This document shows, piece by piece, positions 1,199 to 51,725 of a DNA stretch of 64,000 bases. Below the pieces are notes generated by a model. That model searched no databases. It saw only the letters and a list, made by a program, of their open reading frames with translations, and was not told the DNA's origin. Location: positions 10,523-74,522 of the forward strand of contig DIVY01000003.1 of assembly GCA_002422535.1 (NCBI GenBank), given 5' to 3'. The number at the start of each line of letters is the position of its first letter. The first letter of the stretch is position 1. The stretch is from Bacillales bacterium UBA6120. GTDB lineage: Bacteria > Bacillota_I > Bacilli_A > RFN20 > CAG-826. Position numbers and translations under genes: made by a program.

Positions 1199-4100
1199 TT
1201 ACTCTAAGTAGCTTTCATCGACAACAGGAATTTCAGCAATATCGACGACGCTTTCGCTCGTCATTGCTCGAATCGAAGAGTTGATTTTCCGCTCTTCGGC
1301 TAAAGCTTCTTTCGCTAATGCCTCCATGTCGAGTTCTTGATCGGCTTGATCGTAAAGTCGCACATCGATCGCGAGCGATTGTAGTTCTTTTGTCAAAACC
1401 TTAAATGATTCGGGAATGCCTGGGCGTGGAATTTCACGACCCTTAATAATGGCCTCATAGGTTTTACGACGGCCAACGCGATCATCGGACTTAATCGTTA
1501 ATATTTCTTGTAATGTGTTAGCGGCGCCGTAAGCTTCAAGGGCCCAAACTTCCATTTCACCGAACCGTTGACCACCATTTTGCGCTTTGCCACCAAGTGG
1601 TTGCTGGGTCACGAGTGAATAAGGACCAGTAGCCCGAGCATGGAGTTTATCATCGACCATGTGCACGAGTTTAATCATATACATGACGCCGACAGAAATT
1701 CGTTCATCGAATGGTTCGCCCGTTCGTCCATCGTAGAGGATTGATTTACCATCTTCCGGAACGTTAGCTTCTTTCATAAGTGCGAATATTTCTTCGTTAG
1801 AAATACCATCAAATACCGGCGTAGCAATCTTGAGACCAAGACGTTTAGCCGCTAAACCTAAGTGGATTTCTAAAATTTGACCGATGTTCATCCGGCTGGG
1901 AACACCAAGGGGATTCAACATGATGTCGACTGGGGTCCCATCTGGTAAGAATGGCATATCTTCAACCGGAAGAATGCGCGAAATAACACCTTTATTACCA
2001 TGACGTCCCGACATCTTATCGCCTTCGCTAATCTTGCGTTTCTGGACGATATAGACGCGCACGACTTCGTTAACTCCAGGTGGCAATTCATCACCTTTTT
2101 TACGGGAGAACACCTTGACATCGAGGACGATGCCCGCGCCACCATGGGGGACGCGCAGCGAGGAATCCTTGCCCTCTTTGGTCTTTTCTGAAAAAATGGC
2201 GCGTAATAGTTTTTCTTCGGCGGTTGGTTCAGTTTGTCCTTTGGGCGTAACTTTGCCGACGAGAATATCGTTTTCTTTCACTTCAGCGCCAGGAACGATA
2301 ATGCCGCGTTCATCGAGGAATGCTTTTGATTCTTCGTTGACGTTAGGAATATCGCGGGTAATTTCTTCATTGCCGAGTTTAGTCGCTCGGCATTCAAGTG
2401 AATGTTCTTCAATATGAATCGATGTATAGACATCTTCTTTTACAAGACGTTCGGACATGATTACAGCGTCTTCGTAGTTATATCCATTCCAAGTCATAAA
2501 GGCGATGGTGACATTTTGTCCTAACGCCAATTCACCATTATCCATCGCGGGACCATCGGCGATAATCGTGCCGGCGGTGATGGAGTCGCCCGCTTTAACG
2601 ATGGCTACTTGGTTGATGCAAGTGCCTTGGTTCGAGCGATTAAACTTTTGAAGACGATATGTATGGATTTGGTCTCCCTCGTCAATTACGATTTTGCGGG
2701 AATCGACATAAGTAATTAAACCCGACTTTCTGGCGACGACCGCCAAACCCGAATCGCGAGCGATTGTCGCCTCAATGCCGGTACCCACGAAGGGAGCTGC
2801 GGGCCGTAGTAAAGGTAAGGCTTGCCGTTGCATGTTGGCGCCCATTAAGGCCCGCGTGGTATCGTCATTCTCTAGGAATGGGATACAAGCGGACGCCACG
2901 GACACGACTTGTTTGGGTGAGACGTCGATAAAATCAATGTCGTGAACAGACGCTTTGATGGTATCGCCATCAAACCGCGCGATTACGAATTCATCAAGCA
3001 AATTACCTTCGCTATCGATGCTATCGGTCGCTTGGGCAATGATATATTGCCGTTCTTGTTCAGCCGATAGATAAACTGTTTCGTCAAGGACACGCCCTTT
3101 TTCTTTATCCATGCGCCGATAAGGCGTTTCAATAAACCCATAAGAATTCACTTTGGCATAGGTTGCCAAATTGGTAATCAGTCCAATGTTTTGTCCTTCT
3201 GGCGTTTCAATGGGACAAATTCGACCATAGTGAGAATAGTGAACGTCACGCACATCGAAACTGGCGCGGTCACGTTTAATACCACCGCTTCCAAGCGCCG
3301 AAATACGCCGTTTATTCGTCAATTCGGCAAGGGGGTTGGTTTGGTCCATAAATTGTGATAATGGATCGGTTGAGAAGAATTCTTTAATTTGCGATGTCAA
3401 TGGTTTGATGTTGACCAAACTTTGAGGCGTCACGTTGCTAATATCGGAAATCGACATTTTTTCGCGAATCGATTTGCCCATTTTGGAAAGACCGACGCGG
3501 AAACGATTTTGAATTAGTTCGCCCACGCTATGAATACGACGATTGCCTAAATGGTCGATATCGTCTTTTTGACCAAATCCATCCATGAGATTCATGAAAC
3601 TTGAGAAAGTGGCGACCATATCGGGAATCGTCACGATGCTTTCAGTTAAATTAAGGTCGGTACCAACAATTGGCGAAATAAGTTCTTTTTTCTCGTTATT
3701 GTAAACGCGAACGACATTGACCTTATCATGCGAATTGAGACGGCCAAAGACGGGAAGCGTTACTTCATGAGCGCCGGATTCAAAGAAGCGCTCTTGCTTA
3801 AGACCTTCAATGATTTCTTTCGTCATTAAAGTTCCCTTTTTGAAACGGATTTTTTTCTTGGTGTCGATTAAATCTTCGGCCAAAATCATGCCGGTAAGAC
3901 GTCCATAAATACCGAGTTTTTTTGCATATTTGTATCGTCCAGCGACGCCGAGGTTATACCGTTTGGGGTCGAAGAACTTTTGAAACACGAAATTGACGAT
4001 GCCTTCGGGAGTCCGCGGTTCGCCCGGTTTCATTTTGCTGAAAATTTGCACCAGACCATCAGTAATTGACTTCGTATCGCCATCTTTTTCGAGGGTGTTA

Positions 4101-4756
4101 CGGAGCGCTTCCCGATCTCCAAATAAATCGAGAATTAATTGGGGATCTTCTAAACCAATCGCCTTTAAGAAAATCGTGGCATACATTTTCCGTTGCCGAT
4201 CAATCCGCACGGTTAATACATCTTTAACATCGCTTTCAAATTCAAGCCACGTTCCTCTCATTGGAATGAGGTCAGCTTTATAAAGCAATTTACCGGTTTT
4301 ATCCATTGTTTCCGATAGATAGGCGCCAGGAGAACGACGGATTTGTGAAACGATGACCTTTTCAACGCCATTTATAATAAAAGTGCCGCTGTCAGTCATC
4401 ATTGGAAAATCACCAAGGAAGACTTCGGCATCATTAATAACGGAAGTTTCTTTGAAAATCAATCTTAACGTCACACGTAAAGGAGCGCTATAAGTGGTAT
4501 CGCGTTCTTTGCATTCTAAATATTGATAACTTGGTTCGTCGAAACGAAAATTTAAATACCGTAGCTCGAGGTTACCAGCGTAGTTGATGATGGGAAACAC
4601 ATCTTTCAACGCTTCGTCAAGTCCCTCTTCAAGTAGCCACCGATATGATTCGGTTTGCACTTCGACAAGATTAGGAAGCGGTAATGATCCGCTAATTTTA
4701 CTATAGTCGCGGCGACCGGTACTCATCATCTTAAATTGTTTGATTTGTTTTGCCAT
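1199..4756 (-). CDS. rpoB: DNA-directed RNA polymerase subunit beta
   Basis: 1185-aa ORF beginning [38 protein letters not shown], a typical RpoB N-terminus with conserved motifs throughout. SD AAAGGAG sits 7 nt before the ATG at 4756. Confidence 0.97.
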
Positions 4757-31960: not shown

Positions 31961-33596
<1,636 letters not shown>

Positions 33597-33600
33597 AATT

Positions 33601-33640
33601 CTCCTGGTTTTGATGAAGGTGGTTACCAGATAACACCTTC
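33601..33640 (-). promoter_or_regulatory. preQ1-I riboswitch (type 2-like) controlling queT translation
   Basis: Minus-strand RNA: GAAGGUG-UUAUCUGGUAAC-CACCUUC-AUCAAAACCAGGAG-AAUU-AUG. It has a 7-bp stem, a 12-nt loop ending in GUAAC, and an A-rich tail, closely resembling the T. tengcongensis preQ1-I aptamer (CUGGG-UCGCAGUAAC-CCCAG-UUAACAAAACAAGG). The loop CUGG can pair with the tail CCAG that overlaps the SD, which would occlude it through a pseudoknot. Confidence 0.55.
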
Positions 33641-33646
33641 GTGTTA

Positions 33647-33674
33647 ATTGTAGCCGTTTACGCCGATAAATCAA
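33647..33674 (-). promoter_or_regulatory. Promoter for the queT operon (-35 TTGATT, 16 nt, -10 TACAAT)
   Basis: The minus strand reads TTGATT-tatcggcgtaaacggc-TACAAT-taacac-G, with the riboswitch hairpin starting right there. Confidence 0.45.
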
Positions 33675-42098: not shown

Positions 42099-42173
42099 AG
42101 CCGGCCTTTCGCGCTTGTATTAGTGTTTATATTTTACCATATTGAGGCCGGTTTTGGTATCTATCCGTGCCCC

Positions 42174-42596
42174 TTATGAAAGACAGCTATAATAATCTTT
42201 GATTTTGGATACTCCCACAATTTGCCTGATAACACATTGATTACGCACACATAAAATAATGGGATATCCAGGGATTACAATGTCATCTTGCTGGCAAACC
42301 TGATCGTTTCTATCGCTTTGATGCCCAAACGAAATTTCACTTGTGGCCTCAACAAAAAAAATGATACTGTCGCTTGAAAGAGCAAGACTAATCATCAATG
42401 GTTTTAACTCATTGCAATACCCGCATGATGGGGAATAAATATAGACATCATACGACGCGTGAGGCTGTTGGAGGATGGCAAAATAGGCGATGTGTAAATC
42501 GAATACATCCCTATAATCATTTAATTTGGGTAGCTGGCCACTATCTTGGAAAAGACTTGTGATGACAAATAATATTAAACTGATTTTTTTCATCAT
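42174..42596 (-). CDS. Secreted thioredoxin-fold protein with a CxxC (CGYC) active site
   Basis: 140 aa with an N-terminal signal-peptide-like hydrophobic segment (MMKKISLILFVITSLF) and the motif YSPSCGYCNELKP. It reads as a thioredoxin-like family protein. Confidence 0.6.
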   Translation of the reverse strand: MMKKISLILFVITSLFQDSGQLPKLNDYRDVFDLHIAYFAILQQPHASYDVYIYSPSCGYCNELKPLMISLALSSDSIIFFVEATSEISFGHQSDRNDQVCQQDDIVIPGYPIILCVRNQCVIRQIVGVSKIKDYYSCLS

Positions 42597-42654
42597 TTAT
42601 TAATAGGTCAGACGCTGAATAAATAGTTGCTTTTGTTAATATCATGATACGATA

Positions 42655-43578
42655 TTGATGATTATGAAACGTGCCACACCAATTAATACAATTACTTATA
42701 TGGCTCTAATGGCAGCCTTGAATATTTTGTTTGCCCTGCTCGCTTCGTTTGTCCCCCTCGCCGGATTGTTTTTGGTCATCGCCTTACCACTTACAAGCGC
42801 TTTAGTTGCCATTAACTGCGACATTCGCTACTACCCCATCTATTTTGTGGCAACATTAGGGTTGAGCCTTCTTGTGACGATGCAACAAATAGAAACGACG
42901 ATCTTCTACATTTTTCCTTCGCTAATCCTTGGGCTAGCGTTTGGTTGGCTCATTAAGATTAAAGGTCATGATATATTAATTCTTATCATCACTAGCATTG
43001 TCCAATTGGCATTGCTTTATGTGACCATCTGGCTCATTAACGGCTTGTTCCAAATCGACTTTTTAAATTCACTTAAGCTTGTGCTCCATTTAGACGCCGA
43101 GTTGCACATCAATACAATTATGCCGGCCATTTTATATGTCATCAGTTTGGCACAAACCACGCTCACATATATCGTCATTAGTCCTGAGATAAATAAGATG
43201 GCCATTAAACACCAACCAAACGCGTTCTTGAACATTTATGTCTATCTCGCGGCGCTTCTTCTATCCTTAATCATCGTCCCGCTGGGACTTTGGATACCAT
43301 CAATAAGTTATATGTTGCTTGGTCCCTTGTTTATGGTTACGGGCACATCTTTGTATGAGTTTATCCAACAGCAAAAATTTAAACCGCTCATCATTGCGTC
43401 GGGTTGGCTTATCATCACTACCTTTCTAGTAGCGATACTATTTCCGCTTCTTGATCCCGTCGTGAGCATTCTCCTTGTAACAATGTTCCCATTTGGAGTC
43501 ATCATTTTAAGAATCATTGATTTCTATTTGCCTAAGTTTATCACTCGCTATAAAATGAAACCACGAGGAAGACAATGA
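42655..43578 (+). CDS. Hypothetical polytopic membrane protein (~8 TM)
   Basis: 307 aa, highly hydrophobic, with no recognisable family motif. First gene of three overlapping genes. Confidence 0.55.
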   Translation: MMIMKRATPINTITYMALMAALNILFALLASFVPLAGLFLVIALPLTSALVAINCDIRYYPIYFVATLGLSLLVTMQQIETTIFYIFPSLILGLAFGWLIKIKGHDILILIITSIVQLALLYVTIWLINGLFQIDFLNSLKLVLHLDAELHINTIMPAILYVISLAQTTLTYIVISPEINKMAIKHQPNAFLNIYVYLAALLLSLIIVPLGLWIPSISYMLLGPLFMVTGTSLYEFIQQQKFKPLIIASGWLIITTFLVAILFPLLDPVVSILLVTMFPFGVIILRIIDFYLPKFITRYKMKPRGRQ

Positions 43579-43832
43579 TCCAGTTTTTCAAAATCATCTT
43601 ATCTGGACTGCTATACATTGTGATTAGTCCCTTTATTGCTGTCGTTTTAGCCCTTTTTCTCGTATATGGCTTGCTGATTTTTGTATTTCTAACTTTAAAA
43701 TCCGTTGTTCTATTCTTTAGTGGGCGCACGATTTTTTCCGATTATCCCGAGGATATCGCAGCTAAGAAAATTCTAGGCCAAATTAAAGCTAAAACGCCAC
43801 TGCCGCCAAGTAACGAGGTAACCCCACAATGA
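43575..43832 (+). CDS. Hypothetical small membrane protein (2 TM)
   Basis: 85 aa. Its ATG overlaps the upstream stop (ATGA). Confidence 0.5.
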   Translation: MIQFFKIILSGLLYIVISPFIAVVLALFLVYGLLIFVFLTLKSVVLFFSGRTIFSDYPEDIAAKKILGQIKAKTPLPPSNEVTPQ

Positions 43833-44470
43833 TTAACCTCATCAGCCTTAGCGAAAAAGAACAACGCTTATTAATCATTTTATTCATTTTGCTTGTGGCT
43901 GTTTTAGCCCTGGCTGGTCTTATTGGGTCTCTCGTTAAGAAAATCATGGCCTTTCAAGCCCGCAAAGTCGACGAAGGCATGAGTTATCTCGTAACGACAA
44001 AAGTCATCAAGGATGAAAAGCATTTTCGCTATATCGCTAGAAAGAAAAATCATCGGTTGGTATTCGCTCAGTTTTTAATTCCGCTGCTGCTCATCGGCCT
44101 TGATATTTTATTCATGTATTTATATATCTTGATAACCGATGATCGCGCTATCCTTAATGAACTGCTAAGTTATGATGGTCGTGGCATGGGAACGCTCTTC
44201 TTCGTGTTTGATTGGGCGAACATTCCGACAGCGACTTTCTTTGGATTAACTTTGCCAAGCGATTGGCCGTCGCTTCTAAACACCCCTTACTTTGTCTTAG
44301 AGGCCTGGCCGAGCTATATCTTTGTGACATTAGGGGCCATTGCTTCCTTATGGCTTTTAATTGCCACTCAAGCATTCATTGCCCGTTCGTGGCGCATTTA
44401 CAGCAAGAGTCGGACGATCTTCATTAAAAGCCTTGATACCATTAACGGACTCGATCAAATTACCCCATAA
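43829..44470 (+). CDS. Hypothetical membrane protein (~4-5 TM)
   Basis: 213 aa. Its ATG overlaps the upstream stop (ATGA). Third gene of the putative operon. Confidence 0.55.
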   Translation: MINLISLSEKEQRLLIILFILLVAVLALAGLIGSLVKKIMAFQARKVDEGMSYLVTTKVIKDEKHFRYIARKKNHRLVFAQFLIPLLLIGLDILFMYLYILITDDRAILNELLSYDGRGMGTLFFVFDWANIPTATFFGLTLPSDWPSLLNTPYFVLEAWPSYIFVTLGAIASLWLLIATQAFIARSWRIYSKSRTIFIKSLDTINGLDQITP

Positions 44471-44496: not shown

Positions 44497-44652
44497 TTAT
44501 AAGCTAGAAATTTTGGCAATTATTTCGTAAATAACGAAACCCAAAAATGCCATATCGATAAATATTAGAAGGCCATTAATGCGCCGCTGCGAACGTTTTT
44601 GTCGTTCCAATTCGAGCAGGTCAGGATCAAGCGGTTCGGGATTATATCTCAT
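44497..44652 (-). CDS. Candidate small membrane protein (51 aa) downstream of asnS
   Basis: Hand translation: MRYNPEPLDPDLLELERQKRSQRRINGLLIFIDMAFLGFVIYEIIAKISSL. It has a charged N-terminal half and a C-terminal TM helix. The ATG lies 8 nt after the asnS stop, with a weak SD (AGGAA). Not in the ORF track (shorter than 60 aa). Confidence 0.3.
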   Translation of the reverse strand: MRYNPEPLDPDLLELERQKRSQRRINGLLIFIDMAFLGFVIYEIIAKISSL

Positions 44653-51158: not shown

Positions 51159-51725
51159 TCACTCACGCTGTTCACTAGTGGGATACATTTTATTGATGCG
51201 CTGAAGCGGTATAAATAGCAACCACATGACGGGAATAGTAATCGCTAGTGGCGGTAATACGACAAAAACCGCATTATATATTAGTGAGCCCCCAAGCGTT
51301 GTTTCATATATCACAATGCCCGAAATTACATGGAATACATATCTGACGGCTACGGCGGCTATAATGCCGAGCGTCAGCCACCCGTAATTAATTAATTTTT
51401 GGGGCCGCTCTTTATCGATTAAAGGCTTGAAGAATGAAATGATGGCTAATGATCCATACGCCAATAAATAGTCGAGGGGATAAGTTATAAAGCCATAGCC
51501 ATCGAGCAGGTTCGTCAAAAGTCCATAGACAATGCCAATGCCGATGAAGCTCTTAACAAAGCCATGGCGTAACGCCAGAATTAAAAGTGGGACCATCGTC
51601 AATGACAGGGATCCGCTTTGTGCGCCTAGGCGAATTTTAAACCCATCGCGGTCGAGTAAGACTGCCAGAGAAACAAGCATGGCGATTTCGGCAATTTCTT
51701 TAATCGTCATTTTCCATTTATTCAT
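51159..51725 (-). CDS. thiT: Thiamine transporter ThiT (ECF-type S component)
   Basis: 188 aa with 6 TM helices. It resembles ThiT/YuaJ (..FHVISGIVIYETT..) and is preceded by a TPP riboswitch. Confidence 0.75.
   Translation of the reverse strand: MNKWKMTIKEIAEIAMLVSLAVLLDRDGFKIRLGAQSGSLSLTMVPLLILALRHGFVKSFIGIGIVYGLLTNLLDGYGFITYPLDYLLAYGSLAIISFFKPLIDKERPQKLINYGWLTLGIIAAVAVRYVFHVISGIVIYETTLGGSLIYNAVFVVLPPLAITIPVMWLLFIPLQRINKMYPTSEQRE

Follow-up and report, generated by a model that had tools for sequence, protein, structure and literature searches.

A conserved operon links a divergent DUF2232/YybS-family protein with two unnamed membrane proteins in uncultured Bacilli

What is the function of three overlapping membrane-protein genes that lie back to back with a gene for a thioredoxin-like protein, and do the products of all four work together? 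This question is raised by a locus of Bacillales bacterium UBA6120, located in a 64,000-nucleotide stretch of contig DIVY01000003.1 (assembly GCA_002422535.1) that we refer to as the window. A sequence-only reading of the window, made from its letters and open reading frames (ORFs), had proposed that the thioredoxin-like protein is partnered with a dedicated membrane complex. We find that the three membrane-protein genes (ORF1, ORF2 and ORF3, collectively the trio) are a genuine conserved operon and functional unit, whose first gene is assigned by profile comparisons to the DUF2232/YybS family. The thioredoxin-like gene (trx), on the other hand, is quite likely a lineage-specific add-on and not a partner of the trio. 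As to function, we lean slightly towards the trio being a composite substrate-capture (S) unit of an energy-coupling factor (ECF) ATP-binding cassette (ABC) importer, which would use a shared EcfA-EcfA'-EcfT module encoded elsewhere. The locus has the following layout.

42174-42596, minus strand: thioredoxin-like gene (trx), 140 amino acid residues, with the motif C58-G-Y-C61
42597-42654, no strand: divergent intergenic region between trx and ORF1, 58 bp, presumed promoter region
42655-43578, plus strand: ORF1, 307 residues; the likely true start is ATG 42664
43575-43832, plus strand: ORF2, 85 residues
43829-44470, plus strand: ORF3, 213 residues

Three membrane proteins encoded as a unit

All four genes and both ATGA stop/start overlaps described in the sequence-only reading (43575-43578 at the ORF1/ORF2 junction and 43829-43832 at the ORF2/ORF3 junction) are present in the DNA. 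The Shine-Dalgarno-like sequences GAGGAAG and GAGGT are found just 5' of the ORF2 and ORF3 starts, respectively, and since they precede these starts by only a few bases, both internal starts have ribosome-binding sites. Protein-level homologues of all four genes occur in many metagenome-assembled genomes (MAGs), with identities reaching down to approximately 30% (in tblastn searches, 26% for ORF1 and 24% for trx), which shows that the four ORFs are real genes and not chance ORFs. ORF1 probably starts at ATG 42664 (MKRATP...) and not at TTG 42655, because its homologues begin with MK..TP. Unlike ORF2 and ORF3, trx and ORF1 lack a recognisable Shine-Dalgarno sequence in front of their starts, and only 58-67 bp of divergent intergenic DNA (42597-42664) separate the two, so that transcripts may be short-leader or leaderless here. 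A weak sigma-70-like match is located on the plus strand at 42546-42573, inside the 5' end of trx.

A scan of one genome per species identified 17 species with an ORF3 homologue, all of them represented by MAGs of uncultured Bacilli. With the contexts of distant representatives added, the set comprised 34 loci, all of which were searched with hidden Markov models of the four families. Genes resembling ORF1, ORF2 and ORF3 follow each other in this order in every locus with upstream sequence; in locus L027, the ORF2 homologue was recognised by hhalign only (84% probability). Most trio loci share the arrangement pcrA / trio / asnS-tsaD-rimI-tsaB-tsaE, and most are therefore not independent. The trio is also kept amid unrelated flanks, namely in L025/26 (MntP-trio, aroA, fba) and L028 (trio-helix-turn-helix gene-MntP), as well as in the short contigs L027 and L031, for which little flank was fetched, and its order persists down to approximately 20-25% identity.

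Spacing and rates of divergence are similarly informative. At the ORF2-ORF3 junction, the genes overlap by 4-17 nt, abut or are separated by a 1-nt gap in 13 of 13 independent gene calls, and ORF1 and ORF2, which overlap by 4 nt in the window, are spaced by gaps of 2-74 nt in relatives. In locus L001, ORF3 (78% identity) is conserved to the level of the housekeeping genes pcrA and asnS (79% each), with ORF2 at 74% and ORF1 at 52%. This pattern of order, junction and rate is the one expected of subunits made in a fixed ratio, and we infer from it a physical complex. With the order of the trio conserved across loci, the proposal that the overlapping membrane-protein genes are a functional unit annotated as hypotheticals has held up. 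A literature search found no description of a fixed tie between a DUF2232 gene and two unnamed membrane-protein families.

The family of ORF1 was recognised at the profile level. The Pfam model PF09991 (DUF2232) matched 14 of the 21 members of the ORF1 family (best E=1.2e-8), the same-position genes in L028, L032 and L034 are annotated with PF09991 on record, and the family alignment of ORF1 (A1) was aligned by hhalign to the L034 member over 210 columns with 98.7% probability. Judged by these comparisons, ORF1 is a divergent member of the DUF2232/YybS family, and we consider it very likely to be a DUF2232/S-fold protein. An AlphaFold2 model of ORF1 built on the family alignment is confident (pLDDT 85, pTM 0.82) and has approximately 10-11 helices, more than the eight or so transmembrane (TM) helices counted in the sequence-only reading. 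The six-helix fold of ECF S-components was found in this model: an S-core of helices 1-6 (approximately residues 9-182) is followed by four C-terminal helices. In Foldseek searches of the PDB, the only geometrically good matches were TmRibU (TMt 0.69, probability 0.92) and other S-components.

ORF1 also has an AxxxA motif, A17-L-M-A-A21, in its first helix (H9-32). In alignment A1, A17 and A21 are conserved in at least 90% of sequences and A20 is invariant, and the most divergent family members keep the small-xxx-small pattern [AGS]xxx[AS]. Docking to EcfT is mediated by the helix-1 AxxxA motif, which S-fold proteins without a transport function, such as the receptor and MreD branches, have lost (PMC11109136). 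A recent study of YybS reported that one and the same B. subtilis phenotype is suppressed when yybS, ecfA2 or ecfT is lost, that genetics in both B. subtilis and S. aureus connects DUF2232 to ecfT and ecfA, and that YybS co-folds with EcfAA'T at the position of the S-subunit; it concluded that YybS is an ECF S-subunit, substrate unknown, linked to cell-wall homeostasis (bioRxiv 10.64898/2026.05.13.724699).

The statement in the sequence-only reading that none of the three membrane proteins shows a recognisable family motif thus fails for ORF1 and stands for ORF2 and ORF3, which have no match beyond noise in Pfam, NCBIfam or PADLOC. A candidate assignment of ORF2 to DUF5966 (E=0.04, in two of six members only) was rejected as noise. 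ORF2 is a tight hydrophobic hairpin of two TM helices, with essentially no extracytoplasmic loop between them. Across five relatives its invariant positions are K6, G11, P19, Y31 and P58-E59-D60; the P-E-D motif follows the second helix and is succeeded by a variable, often acidic tail of 25 to approximately 80 residues. The non-syntenic locus L025 has a middle gene that hhalign matched to ORF2 with 96.8% probability.

ORF3, described earlier as a protein with multiple TM helices, indeed has three long ones in its model (pLDDT 76), which found no fold match in structure comparison. By the positive-inside rule, its predicted topology is N-out/C-in, with a short N-terminus outside and a K/R-rich helical linker inside. 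Two of its regions stand out: a conserved aromatic extracytoplasmic loop, TLFFVFDW...FFGL.LPSDWP, with a predicted beta-hairpin, and a cytoplasmic juxtamembrane helix after TM3, QAFIAR(186)SWR, in which IAR(186) is near-invariant. Over 57 diverse members, R186 and Y163 are conserved in at least 90%. When 1.84 billion representative proteins were searched with the family profile, 216 clusters of the ORF3 family were retrieved, 163 of them at E<=1e-10. All are stand-alone proteins of approximately 200-270 residues, named, if at all, "hypothetical protein [Bacilli bacterium]"; the C-terminal extensions of the longer homologues consist solely of low-complexity sequence rich in Q, N and P and hold no informative domain fusion.

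Several other features were noted at the edges of the trio. In one sub-lineage, the last 14 nt of the ORF3 homologue are shared with a fourth gene (152 residues, without a match in Pfam; L034, 8116-8574, plus strand; L030, 708-1166, plus strand), and the operon may have an additional member there. The manganese-exporter gene MntP adjoins the trio in L025 (4217-4774, plus strand) and L028 (2823-3392, plus strand), whose remaining neighbours are not those of the pcrA/asnS context; the adjacency is either due to shared ancestry of both lineages or a weak functional hint. In the window, a 51-residue ORF with a C-terminal TM helix (44497-44652, minus strand) is the gene just upstream of asnS and runs towards ORF3. 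It has counterparts with 53-71% identity in L001 and L008-L011, is called as a gene of 51-60 residues in relatives and has no family match in Pfam or NCBIfam. Finally, the public records of several MAGs with this syntenic block, which is clearly of the Bacilli type, name Staphylococcaceae, Bacteroidaceae, Lachnospiraceae, Coriobacteriaceae, Gemmiger, Slackia or Parabacteroides (L008, L010, L015, L017, L018, L021-L024); these labels are probably taxonomic mislabels of the bins.

A candidate substrate-capture unit and its rivals

Two canonical S-components, both solitary, are encoded in the window: QueT (33090-33674, minus strand; E=3.9e-41), which adjoins tgt, queA and queH, and ThiT (51159-51725, minus strand; E=1e-19). 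Their being solitary suggests that a shared ECF module of the group-II type, encoded elsewhere, is used. ORF1 has no sequence relation to either of them (hhalign probability <1%), and none was expected, because such divergence is usual among S-components.

If the trio is an S unit, its operation can be outlined by analogy with characterised S-components. ORF1, with its six-helix S-core and four-helix C-terminal extension, would bind the substrate on the outside and then topple against the EcfT scaffold of the shared EcfA-EcfA'-EcfT module, on which import would depend. The ORF2 hairpin and ORF3, with its three TM helices, aromatic loop and Arg-bearing helix, would be lineage-specific accessory subunits that complete the S unit. 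Translational coupling would set a fixed ratio of ORF2 and ORF3 to ORF1, and the two small proteins might help ORF1 as CbiN helps CbiM. A bolder version holds that ORF2 and ORF3 are two new families of obligate subunits of a three-protein DUF2232 S-unit, in which ORF3 would act via its cytoplasmic Arg helix and extracytoplasmic aromatic loop, perhaps gating substrate loading or even replacing part of the EcfT coupling; we see this as possible, if rather doubtful.

Several results weigh against a composite ECF S unit. ORF1 itself matches PF09991 below the gathering threshold (22.9 bits versus 27.8; E=5.6e-5) and over residues 22-139 only, and its Foldseek matches in the PDB have E-values that are not significant (at least 1.0). 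No ecfA, ecfT, ABC signature or ABC-type Walker A was detected in the 64-kb window, where the sole P-loop is that of TsaE, which leaves the energising module to be inferred. ORF2 and ORF3 have no detected homology to CbiN, EcfT or anything else, and two extra partner genes have not been reported for B. subtilis YybS. Lastly, because most trio loci are syntenic, independent evidence for the linkage comes from only two or three lineages.

The surroundings of the trio give few further clues. The canonical slot for ecfA and ecfT after rpoA-rplQ is occupied by genes for a HAD hydrolase, cysS, MgtC and a SpoU methylase instead, and neither the window nor any of the 34 related loci has T or A genes beside the trio. 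No metabolic neighbour genes pointing to a substrate of the trio were found, and the whole window has no riboswitch or other Rfam match, hence no substrate hint from RNA regulators.

The main rival to a composite ECF S unit is a trio that works without ECF. Such a trio might be a transporter of the solitary S type, as BtuM and solitary BioY are, or else a membrane scaffold or sensor with the S-fold, comparable to MreD or 5TMR domains, with ORF2 and ORF3 providing the partner for translocation or signalling. Genes for group II S-components usually lie away from ecfAAT, and the lack of neighbouring ECF genes is therefore what one expects of an ECF-dependent trio as well. Two further points argue against independence from ECF: ORF1 retains the helix-1 AxxxA motif, which the receptor and MreD branches have lost (PMC11109136), and the genetics of YybS in B. 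subtilis and S. aureus ties DUF2232 to ecfT and ecfA. We judge an ECF-independent trio to be unlikely but not far-fetched.

The trio could also be a coincidental operon, in which two small membrane proteins of unrelated function, ORF2 and ORF3, sit with the DUF2232 gene only because the lineage inherited this arrangement. Common descent does account for much of the co-occurrence of the trio, because most loci are syntenic (pcrA / trio / asnS), and no link of ORF2 or ORF3 to ECF components could be detected. A chance association is nevertheless improbable: the order is kept with wholly different flanks (L025/26 and L028), also in L027 and L031, and at the lowest identities found; ORF2 and ORF3 never lie more than 1 nt apart in the 13 gene calls; and every context examined with upstream sequence has a DUF2232 gene upstream.

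The thioredoxin-like neighbour

The protein encoded by trx scores just below the cut-off of PF00085 (20.5 versus 23.5 bits). Its family profile matches PDI/thioredoxin (TXNDC5) domains in the PDB with E=2.7e-8, and C58, C61 and the cis-Pro P112 are invariant in the family. On this profile evidence, the protein is of the Trx fold with a CxxC motif and cis-Pro loop, and is assigned as an extracytoplasmic thiol-disulfide oxidoreductase, as the sequence-only reading had suggested. Most orthologues have a lipobox (ITSC, LSGC, LGSC or IGGC), which identifies the predicted ancestor as a lipoprotein. In the window protein (residues 14-18), the lipobox Cys is replaced (ITS-L), leaving a signal anchor or an uncleaved signal, and the L001 orthologue is also without it; both proteins are probably signal-anchored or secreted and not lipid-modified. 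The family is a narrow one: its 30 clusters come exclusively from uncultured Bacilli, and their CxxC dipeptide varies (GY, SY, GH, SH). No CcdA, DsbB or VKOR partner was identified near trx.

The linkage of trx to the trio is of limited depth. The divergent adjacency of trx and ORF1 is present in the window and 16 distinct related loci. Among loci with the whole interval upstream of ORF1 fetched, trx is absent from seven distinct trio-bearing ones (10 fetched loci): the trio is intact without it in L022-L024, L025/26, L028, L032/33 and L034, so that co-occurrence of the four genes, a check suggested in the sequence-only reading, is not conserved across genomes. In the trx-less L022-L024, the gap between pcrA and ORF1 is only approximately 76 bp. 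No trx was found in L027 and L031 either, but these contigs start inside ORF1 and absence is not established there. In L013 (one MAG), a 409-residue ATPase-like gene (3275-4504, minus strand) lies between trx and ORF1 and breaks the divergent pair. In L001, trx has 31% identity, far below the trio.

In the deep relatives L032 and L034, pcrA directly faces the DUF2232 gene, so the simplest history is that trx was inserted upstream of pcrA, between this gene and its promoter region, in one sub-lineage, the alternative being loss elsewhere. On its other side, trx is probably co-transcribed with pcrA-ligA-gatCAB. A consensus scan predicted no minus-strand intrinsic terminator in the 75-bp gap between trx and pcrA, just as the sequence-only reading had stated, and this fits read-through.

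The remaining explanation, that the CxxC protein acts together with the trio as a single extracytoplasmic module for redox chemistry, bacteriocin maturation or immunity, has in its favour the divergent adjacency (58 bp in the window), the invariant CxxC and cis-Pro and a weak PedC/BrcD-like match (E=0.0056); it is largely refuted and we give it very little credence. ORF2 and ORF3 have no cysteine at all, and ORF1 has just one, the non-conserved C55, in a K/R-rich loop that is predicted to face the cytoplasm, so that no thiol-disulfide relay is possible. The trx-less trio loci, which include the deep pcrA-adjacent L022-L024, L032 and L034, the inserted gene of L013 and the divergence of trx, which evolves two to three times faster than the trio, all speak against the proposed partnership with a membrane complex. 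Nor was support found for a role in bacteriocin maturation or immunity: the trx protein scores 16.6 bits with TIGR01295, whose cut-off is 120, neither a peptide precursor nor a C39/ABC exporter is encoded in the region, there were no PADLOC hits, and, as to the small Cys-containing peptide ORFs whose search had been suggested, no Cys-rich peptide ORF is present in 42-45 kb. For ORF1, the finding of a confident, if remote, relationship with a known transporter family, without conserved linkage to trx, is the very outcome that the sequence-only reading had named beforehand as contradicting it.

Implications and known systems

The family of ORF1 is known and has recently been interpreted; what is new is the association of ORF1 with the ORF2 and ORF3 families. 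DUF2232/YybS proteins are widespread; they are reported to be essential in several bacteria and to affect cell-wall homeostasis and sensitivity to beta-lactams or lipid-II antibiotics (bioRxiv 10.64898/2026.05.13.724699). A YybS-like S-component hard-wired to two strongly conserved partners would place extra constraints on what the family binds and how it works, the conserved extracytoplasmic loop of ORF3 being one of them, and would add two unnamed membrane-protein families (approximately 216 clusters for ORF3) to the ECF repertoire. An obligate three-protein DUF2232 S-unit, if true, would be a new ECF-type or ECF-independent transport architecture in uncultured Mollicutes-like Bacilli and would provide a handle on the substrate of the widespread, sometimes essential YybS family. 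As the thioredoxin part of the original idea fails, no new redox system is implied.

For the trx protein, the closest known counterparts are Firmicutes lipoproteins of the ResA/StoA/BdbD type and PDI a-domains, with which it shares the Trx fold, CxxC, cis-Pro, an N-terminal lipobox or signal anchor and a size of approximately 140-150 residues. It differs from them in being a narrow family of its own with a variable CxxC dipeptide and no CcdA, DsbB or VKOR identified nearby. Compared with pairs of the DsbA-DsbB, BdbD-BdbC, ResA-CcdA or VKOR type, the trio lacks conserved redox-active cysteine pairs, and the co-occurrence of trx with the trio is not conserved. PedC/BrcD (TIGR01295) does not fit either, given the trx score far under the model's cut-off and the absence of an adjacent bacteriocin or ABC exporter.

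Among transport systems, CbiMN and NikMN resemble the trio in that an S-component gene is adjacent to, and co-expressed with, genes for small TM proteins, and the S-component CbiM needs the small, separately encoded 2-TM protein CbiN for activity (PMC7689651). Unlike those systems, ORF2 and ORF3 match no CbiN or NikN model in Pfam and NCBIfam scans, and the trio is without T or A genes, whereas CbiMN share an operon with their own CbiQ/CbiO (group I). Furthermore, CbiN acts through an extracytoplasmic loop, which ORF2 essentially lacks. From the group II S-components (RibU, FolT, BioY, ThiT and QueT), ORF1 is set apart by its four additional C-terminal helices and its dedicated, translationally coupled partner genes, as well as by the lack of sequence similarity to QueT and ThiT. 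The nearest relative is B. subtilis YybS (PF09991), which is of the same family by profile and of similar size (307 residues for ORF1, 290 positions in the Pfam model), has an S-component-like fold and is likewise encoded apart from ecfAAT. ORF1 differs from it as a divergent branch under the Pfam cut-off that is not located beside gdpP-rplI, as yybS is, and that always precedes two additional membrane-protein genes.

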